Origin: a virus
Taxonomy: Duplodnaviria; Heunggongvirae; Uroviricota; Caudoviricetes
IMG/VR virus record: IMGVR_UViG_2917413769_000002
Span: 1 to 41,543 of that record
Reading direction: 5' to 3' (one strand)
DNA length: 41,543 bases
Part shown: one piece after another, positions 1-24,819 of the stretch
Layout: every line of letters begins with the position of its first letter
How positions within the stretch are numbered: the stretch's first letter is position 1
The notes under the pieces: generated by a model
The model's database searches: none
What the model was told of the DNA's origin: nothing
Seen by the model: only the letters and a program-made list of their open reading frames with translations
Made by a program: the position numbers and the translations under genes

Positions 1-249
1 ATGATTATCGAAATCAGCATTGCCAAAGAGAAGATCGGCAAAATGCCGAAAGGCTCTACTGAAGCATTAAAACAGGAAATGATACGCCGTGTCAGCCAAC
101 GCTATGACGATGTAGAGGTCATTGTGAAGTCCGCCAGCAATGACGGTCTGTCGGTCCTCCGCGCACCTGATAAAGATGCAGCGAAGGCATTTGTGCAAGA
201 AACTTTGCAGGATGCGTGGGAGAACGCGGACGACTGGTTTGTTCAGTAA
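1..249 (+). CDS. dinI: DinI-family DNA-damage-inducible protein (prophage accessory gene)
   Basis: 82-aa ORF starting ATG at position 1; size and sequence pattern (acidic C-terminus ...[10 protein letters not shown]) match the small DinI family from memory; opposite strand to the phage late operon. Confidence 0.75.
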
Positions 250-3451: not shown

Positions 3452-3805
3452 TTATGCCTCGCTGGTTACTGTCGTTGTTCCGTAGATGGTGTCGACTGTG
3501 GTTGTGAACTCAACGCGCCGCGTCGTGGTGTTCACTGTCGTATTGAAAGAGAGAATGGATTTCACGCCACGCGTTTCGAGAATGCGCTGGCGTATCGCTA
3601 GGTTGTAGGTTTCCGGTTTTTGCTTACCGAGAACGGACTGGATCCACGGCGTGCCTGCCGTCGTATCGAGGAACCATTCCCCATACCATAATTCGAATCG
3701 CGTTTTTATCGCCTGCGCCACAGCCTCTGGTGAGTTAATCAGCCAGGTATCATCACCGCTGCCAAAGGTATAATCACCGTCGGCATCTTCACGCCGGTAT
3801 CGCAT
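3452..3805 (-). CDS. baseplate wedge protein (gpW / gp25-like)
   Basis: 117-aa ORF between spike and baseplate-J genes; size and synteny. Confidence 0.55.
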   Translation of the reverse strand: MRYRREDADGDYTFGSGDDTWLINSPEAVAQAIKTRFELWYGEWFLDTTAGTPWIQSVLGKQKPETYNLAIRQRILETRGVKSILSFNTTVNTTTRRVEFTTTVDTIYGTTTVTSEA

Positions 3806-3807
3806 GT

Positions 3808-4461
3808 TTAACCTCCCAGCGGCGCGGTATTGCTGCCGCCACTCTGTACGCCACCGTGCTTGTGTTTGTCGACGATAGAACCATCCACCAGCTGCAGGCG
3901 TCCGTCAGGCAGTATTTTCAGCCCATTCAGGTCGAACCCTCCCGGCGCGGTACCGGTTATCGCCCCGCTTGATGGGTTTAGGCTCAGCTTGGTCTCGCCA
4001 TCGTCACTACGCAACTCCACGCCGCTGGTGCTGATACCGCCGATTTTCTGCGCCTGCGACTGTGGTCCGACAATGCAGAACGCATCTGATAAATCATGCA
4101 CCCTATCGTCGACGGGCTCCTGCACACCGCCGCTTTGCCACCAGAAATCGATGCAGCGATCGGCAAATATCACCAGACATTCATCACCGGCCTTCACCGG
4201 GAACGTTAGCGTGCAACCGCCGCCGCGCGGAAACACCACCGGCACATCCACCAGCAGCGGATAATTATTCGTAATGCGCTTCCCGTCGTTATCGGTTTCA
4301 ACCGAACGGATAGCAGGCTGCACTACCGCAGTTACTGTTCCCGGGTCGAATGACTGAACGATTCCAGGCAACGCGACACGGATCTGGTTTTTTGTTGTTT
4401 CCCGCTCAGATTTGAGGGTTTCGGCAAGATCGCCGCTGCGGGTCTGGTCAGATACTGCCAT
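3808..4461 (-). CDS. baseplate spike / assembly protein V-like
   Basis: ATG at 4461 with GGAG 9 nt upstream; the longer ORF-track start at 4500 is a read-through of the upstream terminator hairpin; position upstream of W-J-I. Confidence 0.6.
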   Translation of the reverse strand: MAVSDQTRSGDLAETLKSERETTKNQIRVALPGIVQSFDPGTVTAVVQPAIRSVETDNDGKRITNNYPLLVDVPVVFPRGGGCTLTFPVKAGDECLVIFADRCIDFWWQSGGVQEPVDDRVHDLSDAFCIVGPQSQAQKIGGISTSGVELRSDDGETKLSLNPSSGAITGTAPGGFDLNGLKILPDGRLQLVDGSIVDKHKHGGVQSGGSNTAPLGG

Positions 4462-4478
4462 TTGGTAGACTCCAGAAA

Positions 4479-4504
4479 GCAAAAAACCTCGCCGAAGCAA
4501 GGTT
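4479..4504 (-). terminator. intrinsic terminator after the exported-protein gene pair
   Basis: minus-strand AACCTTGC-TTCG-GCGAGGTT followed by TTTTTT; 8-bp stem with one G-U pair and a UUCG tetraloop, read directly from the sequence. Confidence 0.7.
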
Positions 4505-4534
4505 TGAGAAGTGATTGTAAATATTTACAGGGAG

Positions 4535-5032
4535 TTACTTAAACATCCGATAAGTTACCTGTCCGTTAGGTTTGGTCAGGCTGCCATAGCACTCAATTGT
4601 ATGAATAACCTTAACATTAAAATCATTCAGCCCTGAGTAATGAAGAGTGAAGTAATACTGCTTTGGACTCACCGTGTCATCTATGCCACTTTCTGTTTGT
4701 TCCGTATCAAACGTCTCAGGCCTAGTTAGGGTATTTCGAGCAATATCCTTGCACGCGAAAATGACATTATTTTTAGCAAGAACATCGACAGGAAGCTGGT
4801 TCTTTTTAGCCTCATCAGCAAGTTCTTTTTCATAAATGGCCTTACGCTTAAGCCTTGCAGTTTCTTTTTCTTCTGCTGACCGGATGGCCGCCTTATCACT
4901 CTCACTTCTTGATTCAGCAGGCTTACTTCGCGCCTGACTCGCTTGATCTTCCTCTTGGCTCGTATCAAAAATCGCATACGCCGCAAATCCAATCACAGCC
5001 AATAACGCAATCCTTAGCATTTTTGTGAACAT
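4535..5032 (-). CDS. membrane-anchored hypothetical protein (moron)
   Basis: 165-aa ORF; N-terminal hydrophobic segment LRIALLAVIGFAAYAIF followed by a charged low-complexity linker and a C-terminal domain; locally AT-rich; followed by its own terminator. Confidence 0.5.
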   Translation of the reverse strand: MFTKMLRIALLAVIGFAAYAIFDTSQEEDQASQARSKPAESRSESDKAAIRSAEEKETARLKRKAIYEKELADEAKKNQLPVDVLAKNNVIFACKDIARNTLTRPETFDTEQTESGIDDTVSPKQYYFTLHYSGLNDFNVKVIHTIECYGSLTKPNGQVTYRMFK

Positions 5033-5037
5033 GGCCG

Positions 5038-5382
5038 TCAGTCCTTAATATTCTTACACGGAAACGAGCCAATTACTCTTGGAGCATCCATACTGTTTTG
5101 GAGAAGCTGGACATTCAGGAAAGATTTCCCGTTACGCTTCACAAATTCAAAGCCATAATTGTTGCCGTCACGCGCAGGCATCAGCCCCATATTCCACACA
5201 GCCTTAGATTCATCACCTTGAGCGCCGAGGTATTTTACTTTTTGACTTGTGACTAATTCGCCGTTAATACGCACAAGGCCTTCAGCATCCGATAATGTCA
5301 TCTTATAGCCGCCGCACTGGAAAGCTGCGAAAGAAGGTAACGAAACCAATAGCCCAACCAGCAACGCATATTTTCTCATCAT
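5038..5382 (-). CDS. secreted hypothetical protein with Sec signal peptide (moron)
   Basis: 114-aa ORF; N-terminus MMRKYALLVGLLVSLPSFAA looks like a cleavable signal peptide; two Cys in the mature part; sits inside the baseplate cluster. Confidence 0.5.
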   Translation of the reverse strand: MMRKYALLVGLLVSLPSFAAFQCGGYKMTLSDAEGLVRINGELVTSQKVKYLGAQGDESKAVWNMGLMPARDGNNYGFEFVKRNGKSFLNVQLLQNSMDAPRVIGSFPCKNIKD

Positions 5383-6449
5383 CCACCCCGGTTAAAAGCT
5401 TCCTGAGTTTTAATATCCACCGCACCACGCGCCTCGCACATCATATCCATGTACCACGCTTGGCCCCTTGTGTCGCCAGTGTACATAATCCCGCGTACAA
5501 TATAAACGCCATCCGTGGCGATGCTGGCTGTCATTTGCTTGGACACTGGCAGCGCTACGTTCGAATTGCCGTTTATGGTATCGTCGAAATAACGACCAGC
5601 CGTCATGGATATGTCGTTACCCGGTAGCGCTGTTTTGTATACCGACGCTTGATCCAGCTGAATGAGCCCGTTAACCCGGATGTTCGGGTTTATCAGCGCG
5701 CGAACGTTCACACCGTTACCGATGGTCTGCTGCGGCATGCCGATCAGCCCGGTGGCGCTGTTGAGCACAATCGCTTCGTGAACATACTCGTTATTCGCCA
5801 CCATCTGGCGCTGACCGTCCACGAACAGCCAGGTTGCACCACATTGTCCAGCCACGTTATCCATAAGATGCCGGGTCATACCAAACAGCACCCGGCCCCG
5901 GGGGAATACGGTGGCAGGCATTTCAGCCGTCAGGCCTTCAGTCGCACCTTTAGCCTCAAAATCTTTCATCAACGCGCGGTTCACATCTGCGACCGTATAA
6001 CCGGCTGCCAGCGTCTGCGAGGTTATGCTAGTGGCAAAAGCCAGATCCGTATCCGCTGCCTGAATCAGGACATAGGAATCAATGGGATTCTCCTTACCAG
6101 TCACCGAGTATCGAATTTCGCCGCTGTAAATCAGCCCATAGTTTCGCCCATCGCTCTGACCCACATCTGCCGCGTCAACCTCTCGCACCTTTCCGACGTC
6201 GCTGGCCGATACTTCCGGCGCTATGCCGTCGTAACCGGCGATCAGTCGCACCTTTGAAAACTCTTTACCGGTGATCCGATTTGAGGTATCGGCTGACAGG
6301 TTGTAAATCTTGAAGGTTCCCAGCCGGGACGCGCTGCTGATGTTGAACCAGTCGATCGTAAAGGTCACCTTAAAATCGCTAAGCTCAATGCCCTTCCCAT
6401 TCTCGTCCACGAGCTGCAGCTCGAAATGTCTCATCCAGTTCAGTGACAT
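5379..6449 (-). CDS. baseplate hub / tail protein D-like (Mu gp44, P2 gpD position)
   Basis: 356-aa ORF downstream of tape measure and small tail proteins; size and synteny. Confidence 0.55.
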   Translation of the reverse strand: MSLNWMRHFELQLVDENGKGIELSDFKVTFTIDWFNISSASRLGTFKIYNLSADTSNRITGKEFSKVRLIAGYDGIAPEVSASDVGKVREVDAADVGQSDGRNYGLIYSGEIRYSVTGKENPIDSYVLIQAADTDLAFATSITSQTLAAGYTVADVNRALMKDFEAKGATEGLTAEMPATVFPRGRVLFGMTRHLMDNVAGQCGATWLFVDGQRQMVANNEYVHEAIVLNSATGLIGMPQQTIGNGVNVRALINPNIRVNGLIQLDQASVYKTALPGNDISMTAGRYFDDTINGNSNVALPVSKQMTASIATDGVYIVRGIMYTGDTRGQAWYMDMMCEARGAVDIKTQEAFNRGG

Positions 6450-6451
6450 GT

Positions 6452-6754
6452 TTACTCCGTTGATACCAGTAAATGACTGCGGCCGCCCAGGTCGGTTTTC
6501 GTCGGATAATCCTGCGCGCTGTCGTCGCAGACCACCACCAGCTTAAAGCCCAGCCTCATATAGGCATTCTGCGCCAGCAGGTCAGCGCCGGTGACAAGGG
6601 GAATGCCGGAGATAACCGGCTCCCCTCTGTCGTTCTGCAGGTCCATAATCCAGTACAGATCCCGCCAGTTGATGCTGATCCGCCAGGTAGCGCCTGCGAT
6701 ATTGATACTGAACTGCTGGTTATCCGCCGTCAGCGGTATTTCCTGAATAGCCAT
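6452..6754 (-). CDS. phage tail protein (hypothetical)
   Basis: 100-aa ORF tightly packed in the tail module; ATG at 6754. Confidence 0.4.
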   Translation of the reverse strand: MAIQEIPLTADNQQFSINIAGATWRISINWRDLYWIMDLQNDRGEPVISGIPLVTGADLLAQNAYMRLGFKLVVVCDDSAQDYPTKTDLGGRSHLLVSTE

Positions 6755-7341
6755 TAACCCAGCCCCAGTAATGACACACCTCTTTGCAGCAAGGAGCTGT
6801 TAGGTGGCTTCGTCGTTTTAGTGCCGGTGTTCAGTACCGCAGAGGTACTTACACCATCTTTCATGTCTGTTTTATCCGCCACGCTGATTTGTTGCGTTTG
6901 GGATATAAGGACTTCGCGCAGGGTGAGAACGGCGGACAGGACATTTTCGGTCGTCTTATCCGTCGTCACCTCCAGCGCGCGGATCAGCATGTTGCTGTAT
7001 AGTCGCTTACCAGTCACCACATCGAAGGGGATTCTGCTATTCTGCAGCTCCAGTAACTTCTGATACGTCTCCTGCGGGCTAAGGCCAAGACTCAGCCCGA
7101 TTTTTGATGTGTCGGCAAAATCCAACAGCGAGCCACCACCAGCAAAACCGACCTCCATCGTCACTTCAGACGGTTTTTTATAGGCGTGGTCAGCAACTGC
7201 GGCCCCGACTTCAACGGGGTGCTCTGTGATTTCCAGTGTGTCGCTGTGCTTCTCAGAAATAACGACACTTGGAATTATCAAATCGTAACTTGGACCGAAT
7301 CGCCTAGATTGCTGATGAAACAGCGTAGAGAGAATGTCCAT
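6754..7341 (-). CDS. phage tail protein (hypothetical)
   Basis: 195-aa ORF directly downstream of the tape measure gene with coupled stop/start. Confidence 0.4.
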   Translation of the reverse strand: MDILSTLFHQQSRRFGPSYDLIIPSVVISEKHSDTLEITEHPVEVGAAVADHAYKKPSEVTMEVGFAGGGSLLDFADTSKIGLSLGLSPQETYQKLLELQNSRIPFDVVTGKRLYSNMLIRALEVTTDKTTENVLSAVLTLREVLISQTQQISVADKTDMKDGVSTSAVLNTGTKTTKPPNSSLLQRGVSLLGLG

Positions 7342-9362
7342 TATCCCACCTTCGTCTGGTTGCCGCGCATCACCTGGGCGTTTGATGACTGCTGCCGACG
7401 TTCGACTTCATTACCGACCGCCCGGGCGTCACCACCACCGTAGATGTGATACGTGTTCTGCTGGTTCACCTCTGGCGCTCTGCCATACCCCGGCATGTTG
7501 CTCATCACTTTAGGGATGTAGTTGCGGGTTTCCTGAGGCATGAGGGCCATCCCGTGCTTTTGCACATTCCCTATTCCCCAGTTGTAAGACGCTAACGCCT
7601 TACTCAGGTCGCCGCCGTTCGCCTGAAGTAACTGAGCCAGATATTTCGCAGCAGCCTGCGCTGACTTCTCTGGGTCGAAAACATCGTTCCCGCGTAAGCC
7701 CATGTCGCGCGCGGTGCCATCCATAAACTGAAATAGCCCCTTTGCACCAGCGCCAGATGTTGCGAACTGATTACCGCCAGATTCCGTAATGGCAACGCTT
7801 TTCAGCAGCCCGGCGGGAAGTTGATAAACTGCCTCCAGTCTGTTGAGCATAGGTCCCATCCAGTCAAGGAGAACTTTACCCTGAGCGGTCGCGCGCGGAC
7901 GTTTCACTGACTGTGCGTGCTGTTCCGGTTCGTCGTCTGAAGGCCCTGATTCCCCGCGTAAACGTCTGCCCACACTGCGGGGATCCCACCCCGTTTTATC
8001 TTTAATCCAGTCAGCAACGCTATTAGCGCTATCCTCCACCATCGGAGTGGCGCTCGGCTGTCCGCTGCCTTGGTTAAGTAGCTGCTTGCCAATGCTGGCG
8101 GCCTGCGCCCAGTTCCCGTCTTTAATGGCATTCAGCAGGTCGGCAATCATGTTCAGCATCTTGCCGAACTCGCCCATTTGCGAAATAAAGTTATCGAAAT
8201 CCCATTTCAGGGACCACGATTTCGGGTCTATGCCGAGCAGCTTCGCCAGCGCTTGTGTCAGATCTTTGACGGTCTTTTGCAGGTCGCCAATCATCTTGAC
8301 GGCCTGGTCAACCTCTGGCTTCCACTTCTGCCAGTCAATCAGGCTCTGACCACCTTCCTTCCACGTTTTGTAATCTTCCCACAGCAGCGCTATCCCGGCG
8401 GCCAGCGCCGTAATTAAGCCAATCGGGGACATCCAGAAGGTGCTGTTCAGAATGCGCAGCGCGATGGTCAGCGCGCCGAATAAGGCGATCATCTCACGCG
8501 TCTGTTTATCGAGCGACTTCCACCAGGTAAGAAGATCAGACGTCCCCTCAATCAACCGGAAGAACAGACGACCAATAATATCCCCGAGCGCCAGAATACC
8601 CTTGATGGCTTTCGTCAGGGTCTGCTCGATGCGCGGGAAGTTATCCAGAATGTGGCGGCGCAGCGTGTCCAGCGAACCCGCCAGACCACCAGCAAGATTA
8701 GAGCCGATTTTGTCACGGGCCATGCCTGCCATCGCGCCGAACTCGCGCAGGGAGGTCATGAATTTGTTGGAGCTTCTGGCCGCTTCGTCAGCATTAAAGC
8801 CGATAGCTTTCGCCATTGCGCTGTACTGCCCGGTGAAACCGCCCACACCCCGGCGCATCGCCATGAGGGTATTTTCGTCAATACCCAGCATCTGCGCATA
8901 CTGGTTAGCCCTGTAATACGGCATGCTGCTGAGCTTCTGGCCGACGCCCGTAAAAATAGCGGCCATGTCACGCATGTTACCGCTGGCGTCACGGGTCTGT
9001 ACGCCCAGACGGTTCAGGAAACCTTCCGCTCCGGGGTTATGCCGCATAAACCGGGCGAGGCTTTCCAGAGAGGAACGCGCCGCGTCGACGCTGCCGCCCA
9101 CCTGCGAAACCGCATAGCCAATAGACTGAATCCCCTGAACCGTCGCGCCGGTGCGCTGTGACGCCCAGTAGAGATTATCCAGACCGGAGGCGATCTTAGC
9201 CGTGAAGGCCACCACGGCAAGCGCGGCACCTTCGACAGCCAGCCCCATTTTGATGGCGTTTGCGGTCGTACCGGCGAGAACAGAGTCGAACTTTGACGCG
9301 CCCGCTTCGTCGATATCGAAACCGAGCGAAACAAGGAAATCTTTAATAGTCTCAGCGTTCAT
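7341..9362 (-). CDS. tail tape measure protein with C-terminal lytic transglycosylase (SLT) domain
   Basis: 673-aa ORF rich in Ala/Gly/Met repeats; C-terminal segment ...ESGGNQ...GAKGLFQF...YNWG... carries the catalytic-Glu and AxGLMQ-like motifs of soluble lytic transglycosylases; follows the chaperone gene. Confidence 0.8.
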   Translation of the reverse strand: MNAETIKDFLVSLGFDIDEAGASKFDSVLAGTTANAIKMGLAVEGAALAVVAFTAKIASGLDNLYWASQRTGATVQGIQSIGYAVSQVGGSVDAARSSLESLARFMRHNPGAEGFLNRLGVQTRDASGNMRDMAAIFTGVGQKLSSMPYYRANQYAQMLGIDENTLMAMRRGVGGFTGQYSAMAKAIGFNADEAARSSNKFMTSLREFGAMAGMARDKIGSNLAGGLAGSLDTLRRHILDNFPRIEQTLTKAIKGILALGDIIGRLFFRLIEGTSDLLTWWKSLDKQTREMIALFGALTIALRILNSTFWMSPIGLITALAAGIALLWEDYKTWKEGGQSLIDWQKWKPEVDQAVKMIGDLQKTVKDLTQALAKLLGIDPKSWSLKWDFDNFISQMGEFGKMLNMIADLLNAIKDGNWAQAASIGKQLLNQGSGQPSATPMVEDSANSVADWIKDKTGWDPRSVGRRLRGESGPSDDEPEQHAQSVKRPRATAQGKVLLDWMGPMLNRLEAVYQLPAGLLKSVAITESGGNQFATSGAGAKGLFQFMDGTARDMGLRGNDVFDPEKSAQAAAKYLAQLLQANGGDLSKALASYNWGIGNVQKHGMALMPQETRNYIPKVMSNMPGYGRAPEVNQQNTYHIYGGGDARAVGNEVERRQQSSNAQVMRGNQTKVG

Positions 9363-9539: not shown

Positions 9540-9992
9540 TTAACCCTGAGGCTGGCCCGGCGTCGCGCTGGTAGGGCTCACGGGCAAAAAATTTCCCAGT
9601 GAATCGGCGACCACCCGCGCCACCAGCTGCAGCATGGTCAGCAGGTCGATATCATCGAACATCAGCTGACCGCTGTTGAATACCGGCGTCCATCCGTCCA
9701 TGTGCTTGCGTGATACCACGGCCAGGCACGGATGAATAATCGCGTTGGTGTCTTCTTCGGTCAGGGAAGACAGCTCCTCAGCGATACGCGGGAGCAGGGT
9801 TTCAAACACCGGTTTCAGCTGATCGAATTTCACAGTGTCGATTTTGCCATCAGCAGGCAGAAGGGAGCGAATGCTCCCAAATTCTGACATCATTCCCGCC
9901 AGCACCGGCAGCAGTTTGCGGGTCACTTTCAGCTGGTCAAAAACGCTGAGTTTCGCCACGCGGTAATCGTGGCCTTTGATTGAGCATTCCAT
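9540..9992 (-). CDS. tail assembly chaperone (lambda G-like), with a -1 frameshift extension to 9352
   Basis: 150-aa ORF between tube and tape measure genes; slippery heptamer near its 3' end opens a 77-codon -1 frame ending at the tape measure start. Confidence 0.6.
   Translation of the reverse strand: MECSIKGHDYRVAKLSVFDQLKVTRKLLPVLAGMMSEFGSIRSLLPADGKIDTVKFDQLKPVFETLLPRIAEELSSLTEEDTNAIIHPCLAVVSRKHMDGWTPVFNSGQLMFDDIDLLTMLQLVARVVADSLGNFLPVSPTSATPGQPQG
9585..9591 (-). other. candidate programmed -1 ribosomal frameshift slippery site (T_TTT_TTG)
   Basis: minus-strand GGA AAT TTT TTG CCC; heptamer T TTT TTG in zero frame; -1 frame is open for 77 codons with no stop until TGA at 9352-9354. Confidence 0.6.
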
Positions 9993-9995
9993 CTG

Positions 9996-10436
9996 TTAAA
10001 ACTCTCCGAGAACCTGGTCGATTTTGCCGCAGTCAAACACCCAGGGCATCGTATTACCGGCCTTAGCGTTGGCGTTATCCGGCTGTTTCTGGAACGCCAC
10101 GCTGCGCGCCGTGATGATGTCTCCGCTCACCTTGTTTCGGATCACAATGACGTTGTTTCCCCAGGTGCCTGAGGACTGACTCTGCGCGTTGTACGCCAGC
10201 GACAGCTTTTTGTTTGTCGGCGAGGTCTTCAGCAGGTTGACGGTTACCGTGCCGCTTTTATCTGCGTGCAGGCTGTGCATCACTTCGCCATCAGCACCAA
10301 TTGTCATGGTGTTTTTAGGACCGCCCATTGCAACGGTGATCCCCTCCTCTGAACTGGCGGAACCGTAGCCCAGATCAATCTCGCCGGTCGGGCCGGAGAG
10401 GGACGCCGTGACGTCCATAAAAGAATAAGTAGCCAT
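9996..10436 (-). CDS. tail tube protein
   Basis: 146-aa ORF immediately downstream of the sheath gene; size and synteny. Confidence 0.65.
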   Translation of the reverse strand: MATYSFMDVTASLSGPTGEIDLGYGSASSEEGITVAMGGPKNTMTIGADGEVMHSLHADKSGTVTVNLLKTSPTNKKLSLAYNAQSQSSGTWGNNVIVIRNKVSGDIITARSVAFQKQPDNANAKAGNTMPWVFDCGKIDQVLGEF

Positions 10437-10447
10437 TCATGTTCTCC

Positions 10448-11593
10448 TTAGCGAACGACGTTGATCTGCACATCAGCGAAATGAACCGCACCCGCCAGCT
10501 TACAGGCCACCTGAATAACCGGTGCCTTACGGGCTTCGCGGTCTGCCTGCGCCTGCTCGGAAATCGGCTGCGCGTAGACGTAATAGCCTTTTGTCAGCGT
10601 ATCGCCGGAATCCAGCTGCCCGATCGGGCCGCCATTCCATACACCGGCAGCCACCAGCCCGTTTGTGACAGACTGATCCATCGACTGTTCGACATTGGAA
10701 AGGAGGCGCGTAACGCCAGCATCGGTCTGTGGGACTTTGGTTGTGCTGGTGTAGAGCAGGTTATACAGGTTGGTCTGAACGTAGTTCTGCAGCCAGTCGA
10801 GCCCGTGGCGCTCATCGAAGAAATCGCCGCTGGACATGACGCCCTGCTGCAGGATTGCCGTATCGTTTTCGTAATACACGTAGACGTTACAGTTTTTGTT
10901 ATCCAGCGCCTTAGCCTGGCTGAGGTCCAGTGTCTCGTAGGTGATACCCGGCTCCTGCTTGAATTTCAGGGTAATGGTGGTGTTGCTGCCGTTGAAATTC
11001 ACCGTGAACGCGCGACCAAATGCAGACAGCGCGGCGTACTTGCTGCTGGTGGAATACTGCACAAACGTGCGACCGTATTTTGCCGCCTTCAGCTTATAGG
11101 CGAGATCGGTTGTGGATGTCGTGTTAATCGCTTCCGAGTCTTGAGTGGTAATTGCCAGAATACGACTGAGGCTGGAAGCTTCGATCGCGGCGGCCACGCT
11201 CAGCCAGTCGGCATCATCGATCTCTTCATCATCGGCTACGCCCAAACCGTACCAACTCGTGTAATTCAGTACAGCGTTCACGGCCTGCTGCAGCGTTTCC
11301 GTAGAACCGTCTTCAGCCGATACCAGCGTTTTAGCCCAGCGACCAACATACACCTGCTGAGGTTTCGGTGATTGCGAGAAATACACCGTAGCGGCTTCAT
11401 ATTCCGGGCTATCCACACCGAAATCTGTGCCTATATCTTCGGGGGATGAGTAAAGGCGAATACGCTCAGTAACCGGGATAACCGTTGAGCTCCCGAGAAT
11501 GAGCAGCGAACCAAAGTTTCGACCAGTAGCCGCACGCGGCCCAATGATCACGTCGACATTGACGACGTTTGATACAGGTAATCCCTGCGGCAT
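10448..11593 (-). CDS. tail sheath protein
   Basis: 381-aa ORF upstream of the tube gene; size, composition and synteny typical of contractile-tail sheath proteins. Confidence 0.75.
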
Positions 11594-15353: not shown

Positions 15354-16625
15354 TTATTTGTTTTTTGCCCAGAATTCGGCGTTGACCTTGTTCAGTTCTG
15401 CCGGGGAAAGGTGCTTAGTGCTGATTCCGCTGTCTGTGGTGCGGGTGATGTTGTTTAGCGGGGTCAGCTGATTTTTCGCCTTATGCAGCGCCACAGCGGC
15501 AGTAAACACCGCATCGACCGTAGCCTTTGGCGCTTTGTAGAAATCATCCACGCCGAACGATTTCAGGCTGTCGCCGGTGCGCATTGCATGACTCAGCACC
15601 TGACGCTTCAGGCTCTTATCGCCAGCAGGCTGGAAGCCAGGGCAGATAATTTCCGCATCGGCGATCAGGTTGCGCTTAAAGGCTGCATCACCTGTCACTT
15701 TGCGGTTTTCTTCTTCATCTTCGTCGGTGGTCATGTTACCCGGGTCCGGATCGCCGTCGGTGGTTTTACCCTCCAGCTTTTCCAGACGAGCCAGCAGCGC
15801 TTTCGCCCAGGCCGGAATTTCTTCATCGCCGGTGCCGGTTTTGTCTTTGTTCGGATCGCCTTCGTCCGTAGTGGTGCGATTGCCTTCAGGTAAGGCTGTG
15901 GCCTGTGAAGGAATGTTGATGGTGATAGAGGAACCGGGGATTGAAGGCATGCCATCAGACGGCATATCCGGCGCTTCGTCGATGAGTTTTGCCAGTGCAT
16001 CCTCATCTTTCGTCTTAATGGCCTGAGCCAGTTTTTTAAGCCATGACATTACAGGCTTCTCCTTTGTTGTTGATGGGATGGAATCCCCGATTGCACAGCG
16101 GCCACCAGCACGCCCCCGGTCGATGCCGACAGCGAGGTGGTTACCTGTGATTTGGTATTGCTTGCCCTTACCGGGTGCCAGCTGCTTGTACTGCGCGTCA
16201 TAGCCACAACTGACATCGGTCAGGCCTGAATTCACCGCGTCGATTGCTTCCTGGCGTTTAATCAGCACGTCAGCAATGAGCAGATCCGATTTCTCGCCGG
16301 TGCCGCGCCGGACGTTCTGAATGTGTCCGTGTGCCAGCTCTGCGAAGTTAGAAGGGTTCACGAAAACGATGTTGCCCAGGCTGTCCTCTGGATGCCCCAG
16401 CGTGACGGCTACGCCCTCAAAGCTCGCCATCGTCTCCGGGGAAAACACCTCGTCTTCCGTTCGCCAGACTGTCACCGTGCCGGTGCCGTCCGGTTCGAGG
16501 TCGATTTCCTCAGGTAAATAGACCTGCGTCCCTGTGCGTGCGATCGGCACGTCTTTACACAGCAGCGAGCCGTCCGCCTGTAGATAGCGCGTTTCGCCCA
16601 GGCGTGTAGTGAAGAAATATTTCAT
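15354..16625 (-). CDS. capsid scaffold / morphogenesis protein
   Basis: 423-aa ORF with a charged helical central region typical of scaffolding proteins; upstream of the capsid gene. Confidence 0.55.
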   Translation of the reverse strand: MKYFFTTRLGETRYLQADGSLLCKDVPIARTGTQVYLPEEIDLEPDGTGTVTVWRTEDEVFSPETMASFEGVAVTLGHPEDSLGNIVFVNPSNFAELAHGHIQNVRRGTGEKSDLLIADVLIKRQEAIDAVNSGLTDVSCGYDAQYKQLAPGKGKQYQITGNHLAVGIDRGRAGGRCAIGDSIPSTTKEKPVMSWLKKLAQAIKTKDEDALAKLIDEAPDMPSDGMPSIPGSSITINIPSQATALPEGNRTTTDEGDPNKDKTGTGDEEIPAWAKALLARLEKLEGKTTDGDPDPGNMTTDEDEEENRKVTGDAAFKRNLIADAEIICPGFQPAGDKSLKRQVLSHAMRTGDSLKSFGVDDFYKAPKATVDAVFTAAVALHKAKNQLTPLNNITRTTDSGISTKHLSPAELNKVNAEFWAKNK

Positions 16626-21626: not shown

Positions 21627-22631
21627 TCAGTCCAAATCCATCTCCACCACTTCACCGAACAGGTGACCGTAAACGTCCATTGTGGTTTTGATGTTCGAAT
21701 GCCCAATAAGTCGGGAAACCTTCAGAATATCGACGCCTTTGTTTGCCAGGCGAGATACAGCAAAGTGGCGAAGATGATGGAATCGCTTAATGCCATAGTC
21801 GTTCAGGGTTCTGACGAGAACGCCCTGAGTGCCGTAACTGGTAGCAAGGCATGCGCCGGTAAACTGATTGCAGATAAGAGGCTCAGAGGAACCCAGCTTA
21901 TTTTTATCCAGCAACGCGAAAAGCTCACGCGGCATCCGTACCCGGCGCTCCACTCCTCTTTTCAGCCCCTCATGTATAACGCCGTCAACAACATGCCCCC
22001 GGATGTCGATCCAGTCGGCTGACACGTCGTTATAAGTAACCGCCAGAGCCTCACCGATACGCAGGCCACAAATCCCGAGCCAGCACGCGATACGCTCACG
22101 AACTGGCGCGTTATTCAGTAGCTCCCTGACCGATGATGATGGCGGTATGGTGATGGGTCGACGCTTCCGGCGCGCTGGACGGTCAACAGGGTTAAAAGTG
22201 ATGAGCCGCTTTTCCACCAGCAGGAAGAAAGCCGAACGAATCCAGCGATGGCAGCCGGTGCGAACCGAATCAACGATATCGCGATGGCTGATATGGAGAA
22301 TATTTTTTTCCAGTATCGGCCCGTCTACAGCGAGAAGATCGTGACGGCATTTCGTATATGACGACAGCCGTATGATATTTTTTTCCAGCTTGCCGGCCTG
22401 ATACCCCAGATAAAACAGAATTAACTTTCGGAAAGTCCAGGAATGGTCTATTCCGGTCCAGCTGGCGGTTCGACAATCCAGCTCAATATTCTGTTTTTGC
22501 CAGAAAAGATGTGCGGCATCATCAATATTCTTAAAGATGCGGCGGCGCCCATGACCGGATTTTTCATCCTTCCAGTGGACGTAATATTTTGATTGTCCAT
22601 TGGCATCAGTGGATTCTTTTATCGAAGCCAT
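21627..22631 (-). CDS. tyrosine site-specific recombinase (integrase family) with arm-binding-like N-terminal domain
   Basis: C-terminal catalytic signature R (LRIGEALA), H-x-x-R (HHLRH) and Tyr (…TTMDVYGHL); N-terminus GQSKYYVHWKDEKSGHGRRRIF resembles AP2-like integrase arm-binding domains; ATG 22631 with GAGGA upstream. Confidence 0.75.
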   Translation of the reverse strand: MASIKESTDANGQSKYYVHWKDEKSGHGRRRIFKNIDDAAHLFWQKQNIELDCRTASWTGIDHSWTFRKLILFYLGYQAGKLEKNIIRLSSYTKCRHDLLAVDGPILEKNILHISHRDIVDSVRTGCHRWIRSAFFLLVEKRLITFNPVDRPARRKRRPITIPPSSSVRELLNNAPVRERIACWLGICGLRIGEALAVTYNDVSADWIDIRGHVVDGVIHEGLKRGVERRVRMPRELFALLDKNKLGSSEPLICNQFTGACLATSYGTQGVLVRTLNDYGIKRFHHLRHFAVSRLANKGVDILKVSRLIGHSNIKTTMDVYGHLFGEVVEMDLD

Positions 22632-22695
22632 ACTGAACAATCCTCACTCAAAAAACATTATCAAAGCCACTCGGTGAATGGCTTTTGTAATGAAT

Positions 22696-23455: not shown

Positions 23456-23994
23456 CTGGTTTTCTCTATTTCACGTATCCCAGCCAGCTGGTTATTCGCT
23501 TTTTCGATAGCGGCCAGCAGCGGCTTGATCCAGAGAACAGCTTGGCAATACGTCAGCGCGCTGGTGGTAGTGGCGCTATCACCGGCTGCGTCAGCGTCCC
23601 CGGAATCGGTGTGCACTGCGCTGGCACGTAAACTGTTCGCGTAGCTGAGCAGCCCACCAGCGACATCAGCAGGAACAGGCAGATCACAGGTTTTTTCACG
23701 GCGGAGGATCTCCCGATATTCGATAACGGTTTTATCGGAGCTGGCATCAATCAGCGAGTTTAGTCGGCTGGCGTTTTCGGCAACCTGGTTAAACCGGTTG
23801 AAGTTGAAAGCCTGAGCAGCGATAACCGTCCCCTGCAGGGCGTTGTCACTGCGCAGAACGCCGTTATCACTCTTCAGCGTAGCTACGTCAGAGCGGCTGT
23901 TTGCCAGCAGGACACACAGCACGGCGACTACTGCAATGACGGCCACCAGCAGTATCAGACGCCATGAGGCTTTGATATCGGCTATGGTGATCAT
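23443..23994 (-). CDS. Rz-like i-spanin
   Basis: 183-aa ORF with N-terminal signal-anchor (ILLVAVIAVVAVLCVLL) and coiled-coil periplasmic domain; follows endolysin; contains the embedded Rz1 frame. Confidence 0.75.
   Translation of the reverse strand: MITIADIKASWRLILLVAVIAVVAVLCVLLANSRSDVATLKSDNGVLRSDNALQGTVIAAQAFNFNRFNQVAENASRLNSLIDASSDKTVIEYREILRREKTCDLPVPADVAGGLLSYANSLRASAVHTDSGDADAAGDSATTTSALTYCQAVLWIKPLLAAIEKANNQLAGIREIEKTRASQ
23553..23699 (-). CDS. Rz1-like o-spanin (outer-membrane lipoprotein), embedded in Rz in +1 frame
   Basis: GTG at 23699 gives MKKPVICLFLLMSLVGC with lipobox LVGC, followed by a Pro-rich mature peptide; fully nested in the Rz gene as in lambda Rz/Rz1. Confidence 0.7.
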   Translation of the reverse strand: MKKPVICLFLLMSLVGCSATRTVYVPAQCTPIPGTLTQPVIAPLPPAR

Positions 23995-24521
23995 TTCAGA
24001 CCGTCCAGACAGAGAGCTTCCTCTTTACCTGCGCGAGTCACCAACCCAGGAAGAACCCGGCCGCCACCGTAAACCCAGCGAGGAAATTGGTAGCACGCCG
24101 CCTTAAGGTCACCTTTTCGGAACAGGGAGAACATTGTCGAGCTCCGCATATTGCCGCACCCAGCACGGAACGTGACCGATACTACAGCGCTGAAAGTATC
24201 ATCAGACAGATTTCTGCCGTTGGCGTACCGGTTAACACAGGATTCAGCATCGAGGATATTTTTTTCCCATTCCGCCGCGATCTGCTGGTCGTTTTTAACT
24301 GTGCCGGGTTTAACCCCGTGGGTGTTGCCCATGCCATCAGTGAGCACACCAGCCGGGCAAATATAAGGATCTCGACGACATGATTCCGCGTTGCCGATGA
24401 GTTCAAGACCGCGCTCATTGGTCCGAACATGCCCAGCGTTGAGCACTATTGCGATAATCGTAGCTACCGAGCAAACAATTCCGGCAGCTCCACTTTTCTT
24501 ACTCAGTTTCAACTGTGCCAC
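23991..24521 (-). CDS. SAR endolysin (phage lysozyme, GH24 type, P21 R-like)
   Basis: N-terminal Gly/Ala-rich weakly hydrophobic SAR domain; catalytic E...D...T arrangement; C-terminal block resembling P21 R as recalled. Confidence 0.8.
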   Translation of the reverse strand: MAQLKLSKKSGAAGIVCSVATIIAIVLNAGHVRTNERGLELIGNAESCRRDPYICPAGVLTDGMGNTHGVKPGTVKNDQQIAAEWEKNILDAESCVNRYANGRNLSDDTFSAVVSVTFRAGCGNMRSSTMFSLFRKGDLKAACYQFPRWVYGGGRVLPGLVTRAGKEEALCLDGLK

Positions 24522-24819
24522 TAGAAATTCTCCGCATAGCCTCCGTTACCACCTCGGCGGTAGCCGGACGATCGGAGTGTGGTTTTTTACCTACATCTGA
24601 TAAGTAGTTCGCCAGCAGTTGGGTTCTTTTCCTTTCCTCTGCCATGCGCTCACGCTCTTCTTTGCGCTTTGCGTAGTAGGTTTTTATCGTGAAAAATGCC
24701 GATACAAGGGCACCGATAATAAATACGTAATCCTGTAGGCTGAGCAAAGAGAACACCCCTAAAGCAGCCGACCACCAATACGGTAAGTCGTGTCCATTTG
24801 TTGGGTTCATACGTTGCAT
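24499..24819 (-). CDS. holin (pinholin-like, 2 TM)
   Basis: 106-aa ORF with two hydrophobic segments and a highly charged C-terminus; overlaps the endolysin start by 23 nt; first gene of lysis cassette. Confidence 0.55.
   Translation of the reverse strand: MQRMNPTNGHDLPYWWSAALGVFSLLSLQDYVFIIGALVSAFFTIKTYYAKRKEERERMAEERKRTQLLANYLSDVGKKPHSDRPATAEVVTEAMRRISSGTVETE

Follow-up and report, generated by a model that had tools for sequence, protein, structure and literature searches.

In a 41,543-nucleotide (nt) stretch of viral DNA, here called the window (IMG/VR record IMGVR_UViG_2917413769_000002, Caudoviricetes), two small genes, designated A and B, lie between the genes for the baseplate hub and the spike of a phage tail. 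As judged from its tail genes, the source is a SEN34-like temperate myovirus prophage. Comparison of related loci identifies the hub–spike interval as a conserved accessory-gene slot with the order hub, A, variable cargo, terminator and spike. Across these loci, A is seen as a lineage-wide resident of the slot rather than an insert, while the scattered occurrence of B behaves like that of sporadic, horizontally exchanged cargo. A and B are most likely non-structural, periplasm-acting accessory proteins; with moderate confidence, and by analogy, we regard them as envelope-acting proteins outside the particle that would most plausibly block phage entry. A sequence-only reading of the window had described two small genes at this position as an exported pair with its own terminator and had suggested that they are host-acting morons. 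Both open reading frames (ORFs) are present as described, on the minus strand, and the remaining claims are taken up below with the results that bear on them.

To define the slot, we compared the hub–spike interval of 80 IMG/VR loci with hubs 87–93% identical to that of the window and of three annotated records. Interval length varied from 400 to 1862 bp over the surveyed loci, and near-identical tails held very different genes between hub and spike. Of about 82 loci, 72 had an A-family gene directly behind the hub, and in 60 of 66 the A start lay within −4 to +3 nt of the hub stop codon; in the window, the hub stop overlaps the start of A (ATGA). Members of the family were found in SEN34, GZ7, Mulock, YP3, Omnitron and ST11-OXA48phi15.1, and the hub–A order was also seen in phages with a hub only ~48% identical (ST11-OXA48phi15.1 and ST16-OXA48phi5.2). 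A distant family member occupies the identical position after the hub at locus L087, and loci L091 and L092 carry in its place a 292-amino-acid (aa) lipoprotein fusion with a C-terminal A domain. About ten loci with hubs 87–93% identical have no A, and their first slot gene encodes another signal-peptide protein or a lipoprotein. Because A is swapped for unrelated exported proteins in these loci, it is not needed to build the tail.

The resident gene also evolves, on the evidence of pairwise comparisons, far faster than the virion proteins around it. Mean pairwise identity was 0.77 for mature A versus 0.97–0.98 for the hub, 0.95 for the plug and Dit proteins and 0.97 for the sheath initiator; the C-terminal parts of the tape measure and the spike, with 0.73 each, were comparable to mature A. 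Identity among A proteins follows that of the adjacent 3′ half of the hub gene (rho 0.51), a correlation expected from linkage.

The N-terminus of A carries a cleavable Sec signal peptide of about residues 1–19, with a positively charged n-region (MMRK), a 17-residue hydrophobic core and a cleavage site between SFA and AF, so that positions −3 and −1 are small residues. The protein lacks a lipobox and has two Cys residues, Cys23 and Cys109. These features, obtained by scanning A and 34 relatives heuristically and from an alignment, bear out the signal peptide and Cys pair described in the sequence-only reading. Over the 35 family members, the layout of the signal peptide is constant and its sequence free to vary. 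The mature protein has 28 invariant columns in an alignment of 27 homologues, with Cys109 invariant and Cys23 present in at least 90%. Mature A (~95 aa) is predicted to form an eight-strand β-barrel with Cys23 and Cys109 near its two ends; in the AlphaFold model (predicted local distance difference test score 81), an all-β barrel, the first and last strands bear both Cys residues.

A belongs to PHROG 3443 (phrog_3443, listed as ‘function unknown’; E=3e-45) and has 342 homologues across Enterobacterales, with hosts in Klebsiella, Salmonella, Escherichia, Yersinia, Edwardsiella, Pantoea and Photorhabdus. Its best BFVD match was a ‘lipoprotein’ of Serratia phage Scapp (E=6e-3, template modeling score 0.49). 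Profile and structure searches of both proteins, which the sequence-only reading had proposed, were run: neither A nor B had a match in Pfam, NCBIfam, PADLOC or PDB profile searches, and their structure models returned no informative homologue. Homology to known baseplate components was looked for and found for neither protein, in agreement with the earlier view that they are less likely to be virion parts than morons. One RefSeq record labels the A family ‘STY1065/STY2022 family phage-derived protein’; both proteins are otherwise annotated only as ‘hypothetical’ or ‘putative secreted’, and a literature search found nothing on the A family.

Two further observations concern this family. Many of its database entries are 87-aa calls that start at an internal Met (MTLSD...) and have lost the signal peptide (P0045–P0062); SEN34_20 of phage SEN34 (NC_028699) is annotated at 15605–15838 (L090 2591–2824), yet homology begins at 15515. 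In addition, distant members of the A superfamily exist as single chromosomal genes in non-prophage surroundings, at L093 4001–4357, adjoining clsA, yciY and yciI, and at L094 4001–4339, adjoining tsx, yoaK and a LysR regulator gene. Both encoded proteins have a signal peptide, an xCGPF start and a YDC end, and no Pfam or NCBIfam model covers either.

Gene B encodes an N-terminus with K4 and R7 ahead of a 15-residue hydrophobic membrane or signal segment (residues 8–22), a charged helical linker of ~60 residues (about 23–80) and a conserved C-terminal domain of ~75 residues (about 82–165) with invariant Cys94 and Cys148, predicted to be cystatin/NTF2-like. By heuristic calls, the protein thus appears membrane-anchored with a charged linker, as had been noted before. 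Variants of the B family combine the membrane anchor with linkers of differing length or have a plain signal peptide fused straight to the domain (P0128 and P0134), and some members lack the charged linker. Since all variants are anchored or bear a signal peptide, the C-terminal domain would be periplasmic in every form. The family comprises ~16 protein clusters among 5.8 billion proteins and was found in 3 of 80 IMG/VR relatives and a few phages. Wherever the neighbors were readable, B lies after A and before the spike (SEN34, as SEN34_21; ST16-OXA48phi5.2; L010–L012), and the site is the same in EKP1. The earlier view of the pair as an insert therefore fits B but not A.

Other cargo at this site is diverse. 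The commonest genes past A, in 35 loci, encode a HEPN-like protein and one of two partner families, possibly a toxin–antitoxin or defense pair; the HEPN-like protein matched Pfam HEPN at E=0.0085, under the cut-off. This unit (L088 4498–5657; also, for example, in L052, L060 and L027) consists of a 123–153-aa HEPN-like protein and a 243–276-aa partner of unknown family that exists in two unrelated versions. Further slot cargo comprises a YafO toxin pair, an exported tRNA_anti-like OB protein, other exported proteins, a lipoprotein, DUF4282, a reverse-strand DUF4236 gene and DUF2335. In these respects, the slot is a typical accessory or defense hotspot. No description of a hub–spike hotspot was found in the literature.

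The downstream edge of the slot is marked by a hairpin, AAACCUUGC-UUCG-GCGAGGUUU followed by UUUGCUUUCU, at 4505–4475. This hairpin (CCUUGC-UUCG-GCGAGG with A/U flanks) plus its U-run ends ~13 nt ahead of the spike ribosome-binding site (CUGGAG), and the 76-nt stretch around it (4465–4540) folds 3.3 standard deviations better than shuffled sequences. The spike gene itself starts at the ATG at 4461 and not at the TTG at 4500, the ATGGCAGTATCT start being kept in all loci. In 78 of 82 sequences, the spike ribosome-binding site is preceded at a constant distance by a guanine–cytosine (GC)-rich hairpin plus U-run, which is kept even in loci where A alone fills the slot. The usual stem, CCCGCC/GGCGGG, is invariant and its loop free (ACCC, AUCC, AUUC, ACUU, GGAU, UCUC and others); four alternative stems, in the window, L008, L078 and L087, preserve pairing by two-sided changes. 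Invariant or compensated stems with free loops indicate that the hairpin is under selection as a structure, and its presence whatever the cargo assigns it to the slot or backbone rather than to the A–B pair. Thus, the UUCG terminator proposed ahead of the spike gene is present, but it is not the pair’s own: as far as alignment can tell, the terminator is a lineage-conserved backbone element. As the spike ribosome-binding site follows the hairpin too closely for a promoter to fit in between, transcription of the late genes has to read through the hairpin. We identified no antiterminator among 10 ORFs in the 21.6–30.3-kb region of the window, around and upstream of the lysis cassette.

A forward terminator is lacking in a few loci, namely those of GZ7-type phages and L036. 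In the GZ7-type phages (L001/L002, about 3485–3890), the spike gene is preceded by a DUF4236 gene on the reverse strand and by a hairpin that lacks the U-run; L036 has no hairpin whatsoever, and L072 has a single stem mutation.

How the pair might be expressed was addressed by a promoter search. The coding strand upstream of A had no consensus sigma-70 promoter in the window or two relatives, and none was found upstream of B, which starts 5 nt past the stop codon of A with an AAGGA ribosome-binding site ahead. Given the overlap of the A start with the hub stop and the 5-nt spacing of B from A, the pair has no room for an intergenic promoter of its own; a weak or non-consensus promoter may lie inside the hub 3′ end. 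Within that end, hub codons ~305–345 (5415–5535, minus strand) show a synonymous codon identity of 0.87–0.96 versus 0.79 gene-wide over 74 distinct hub genes. Synonymous conservation is raised ~40–150 nt ahead of the slot and falls to 0.55 in the last 15 hub codons, a pattern that may reflect a recombination anchor or an embedded signal.

Morons have been defined by extra DNA relative to related phages, deviating GC content, an own promoter, an own terminator and expression from the repressed prophage (PMC3594210). GC content is 0.40–0.47 over positions 4350–5400 versus 0.52–0.58 on either flank, so the pair is locally AT-rich as previously stated, and gene B has a value of 0.40. B shows both extra DNA and deviant GC content, A shows deviant GC content only, and an own promoter was found for neither. 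The moron proposal consequently holds in part: both proteins look exported, the interval is a cargo slot and B is sporadic, but no promoter was found, A is a resident and the terminator belongs to the backbone.

From these data, we propose the following model. Translation of A would be coupled to that of the hub, placing its synthesis at least in the late lytic phase, and Sec export would yield a ~95-aa periplasmic β-barrel. B would be co-transcribed with A, its domain probably disulfide-bonded and, in this copy, tethered to the inner membrane by the long charged helix. The terminator would act as an insulator of the backbone, stopping transcripts of the slot shortly ahead of the spike gene, with late transcription reading through to express the spike and distal baseplate genes. 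A and B would then interfere with a periplasmic or inner-membrane entry step, either as superinfection exclusion or by guarding infected or lysing cells from re-injection. We infer phage-entry exclusion by analogy and from anatomy, that is, from small, probably disulfide-bonded periplasmic binding-type folds that are non-structural, fast-evolving or exchanged, and housed in a slot with defense-type cargo. A more far-reaching version, which we consider unlikely, would make A an undescribed family of phage periplasmic proteins, with chromosomal paralogues, obligatorily co-expressed with the hub of a single contractile-tail lineage. It could be a new late-expressed entry blocker directed at the tail-tip, periplasm or inner-membrane step, and the conserved terminator would make the slot an insulated ‘envelope-defense’ cassette with B-type add-ons.

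Several points weigh against entry exclusion. Prophage-state expression is a hallmark of exclusion genes and morons, and with no promoter found and A coupled to a late structural gene, such expression is unsupported here. No homology of A or B to known exclusion, immunity or inhibitor proteins was found, and PADLOC returned no hit. Signal peptides and disulfides were judged by heuristics. [quoted passage not shown] Finally, the near-universal retention of A beside the hub could mean a role in the phage’s own cycle.

Several known systems offer points of comparison. HK97 gp15, for which superinfection exclusion is reportedly documented in Cumby et al. 2012, likewise comes from a temperate phage of enterobacteria, is small and targeted to the envelope, and is encoded amid tail genes in DNA of deviating GC content with a terminator after it. 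Homologues on bacterial chromosomes exist for both families, YebO in the case of gp15 and L093 and L094 in that of A. It has been characterized as the product of a tail-operon moron and as an inner-membrane exclusion protein with chromosomal homologues (PMC3594210). However, gp15 has no sequence or fold relation to A or B. Whereas it resides in the inner membrane, has its own promoter and shows prophage expression, A is a predicted soluble periplasmic barrel, coupled to the hub and present in nearly all relatives; B, too, has no promoter of its own.

T5 Llp, phi80/N15 Cor and T4 Spackle resemble A and B as small, exported or lipidated, quickly evolving envelope proteins whose genes lie within tail modules or next to them. 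No homology links them to A or B, and neither A nor B carries the lipobox of a lipoprotein such as Llp or Cor. T4 Spackle is helical and inhibits the gp5 lysozyme; A does not track the tail lysin domain. At the level of the locus, the slot is comparable to the accessory and defense-gene hotspots of temperate phages, for which P2-like phages provide an example, in its fixed site between core genes, its interchangeable toxin–antitoxin or HEPN-type cargo and its conserved flanks. It differs from the P2-like hotspots by its location within a SEN34-like baseplate cluster, with a resident exported protein first and a conserved terminator last.

The main rival to entry exclusion is a general role in host fitness, with A and B as lysogenic-conversion factors, that is, envelope proteins through which adhesion, stress tolerance, or resistance to serum or antimicrobials would change, in the manner of lambda Bor and Lom. 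In favor of it are the predicted export and the AT-richness of both proteins and the occurrence of further exported proteins and lipoproteins in the slot, and the chromosomal A-superfamily members in core-genome neighborhoods (L093 and L094) suggest a general periplasmic activity; the conserved terminator would also suit insulation of prophage-state transcription. Yet A spans hosts of very different lifestyles and is tied to one tail type, which speaks for phage biology rather than a host niche, and the lack of a detected promoter together with the coupling of A to a late gene also weighs against a host-fitness role. We consider a host-fitness role unlikely, although it deserves more weight than the explanations that follow.

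Much less probable is that A, perhaps with B, serves phage morphogenesis or infection, either as an unrecognized tail-tip or assembly part with a non-secretory N-terminus or as a periplasmic helper of lysis or release. Such a role would agree with the retention of A in nearly all lineage members and its translational coupling to the hub, but the n-, h- and c-regions, the AxA-type site and the terminal Cys pair of A are those of a classical cleaved periplasmic protein, and its replacement by unrelated exported proteins beside 87–93% identical hubs marks it as dispensable for this tail. In support of such a role, pbunaviruses too carry a single gene between those for the hub (gp41) and the tail tip (gp43); in Pseudomonas phage E217, however, this gene, gp42 (L089 7595–8128), is unrelated to A, encodes no signal peptide and is missing from the virion atlas. 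The E217 paper does not mention gp42, and the structural atlas of Pa193 does not contain gp43. As to lysis, the anchor and helix of B resemble an i-spanin, and a weak match to the PHROG Rz-like spanin (E=0.0047) was confined to this membrane-plus-helix part; however, the linker is missing in some family members, and a separate holin–lysozyme cassette is present elsewhere in the window. An Rz-type i-spanin was rejected for B, which sits in the tail cluster and has no lipobox ORF, embedded or adjacent, that could encode a lipoprotein partner. Membership among virion baseplate components is likewise not supported, as no structural family was matched by A or B in profile, PHROG and structure searches and A is replaceable in about ten loci with near-identical hubs.

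Least probable of all, a PliC/MliC/PhiA-like periplasmic inhibitor that would spare infected cells or lysogens lysis from without by acting on the phage’s own tape-measure SLT hydrolase is contradicted by the co-occurrence of every A subtype with at least six members with both unrelated tape-measure C-terminal types (SLT in the window and 34 loci; ‘ERNNNPGNL...GRFA’, or ‘NNPGN’, in 48) and by Pfam and PDB profile searches, which gave no MliC/PliC match and generic barrel similarity only. The mixing of subtypes and the lack of identity tracking reject any lock-and-key relation of A with the phage’s own lysin or spike tip.

The assignment of the source rests on profile and hub-protein comparisons, in which the tail is SEN34-like (Brunovirus) with parts of Pam3/E217 type; the SfV/ST64B/e14-like relatives named in the sequence-only reading are the wrong family. 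Contigs of Escherichia sp. E1130-type genomes match the window. By hub protein, the nearest phages are YP3, vB_EcoM-606R2, SEN34 (Brunovirus), Klebsiella RCIP0034 and RCIP0098 and Hafnia yong1; against Pfam E217_GP41, the hub scored under the cut-off. Without A or B, the tape measure, Dit-like protein, plug (Pam3 gp18), hub, spike, sheath initiator, wedge and baseplate J were all accounted for, a point in favor of a non-structural pair (Table 1).

Table 1. Tail-region features and lysis cassette of the window (positions in nt, counted from the first letter of the window).
Feature	Position	Strand	Evidence
Sheath	10448–11593	minus	
Tube	9996–10436	minus	
Chaperone	9540–9992	minus	
Tape measure with SLT domain	7341–9362	minus	
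Dit-like protein	6754–7341	minus	
Plug, Pam3-gp18-type	6452–6754	minus	
Baseplate hub, upstream slot boundary	5379–6449	minus	PHROG 196 ‘baseplate hub’, E=3e-86
Gene A, 114 aa	5038–5382	minus	ORF, PHROG 3443
Gene B, 165 aa	4535–5032	minus	ORF
Intrinsic-terminator-like hairpin plus U-run	4475–4505	minus	Fold and conservation
Spike, downstream slot boundary, apex motif	3808–4461	minus	Gp138_N-type N-terminal domain, Pfam PF18352, E=2e-44
Beyond the spike, in order: sheath initiator, baseplate J, wedge, fiber, fiber-assembly genes		minus	
Holin–lysozyme cassette	23991–24819	minus	

Some neighboring features were also recorded. Otherwise near-identical tails differ in the enzymatic domain at the tape-measure C-terminus, which is exchanged among the window (7341–9362, minus strand), L088 57–2045 and the 82 related loci. 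In the spike, the N-terminal half is conserved (mean pairwise identity 0.94), and the C-terminal half (window 3808–4130, minus strand) exists in at least two types, about 92% and 66–69% identical to that of the window, which assort independently of A subtype and of cargo. A Phage_integrase-family ORF (21627–22640, minus strand) lies directly downstream of the holin–lysozyme cassette, and a DinI-like ORF (1–249, plus strand) adjoins the tail-fiber assembly gene on the opposite strand at the window edge.

Accessory cargo in a tail operon is a kind of arrangement already known; modestly unusual here is the combination of a hub-coupled resident exported protein with a lineage-conserved, slot-closing terminator. 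For annotation, these results mean that N-terminally truncated A-family calls hide the signal peptide and that a cargo should not be taken for an independent unit on the strength of the slot terminator. Klebsiella, Salmonella, Escherichia and their relatives commonly carry SEN34-like prophages, in which the recognizable slot flanks (the 3′ end of the hub gene, and the terminator with the spike ribosome-binding site) provide a handle for mining accessory and defense genes. A itself represents an uncharacterized, fast-evolving family with hundreds of homologues and, if it is a true entry blocker, would bear on phage-therapy host range in these pathogens.
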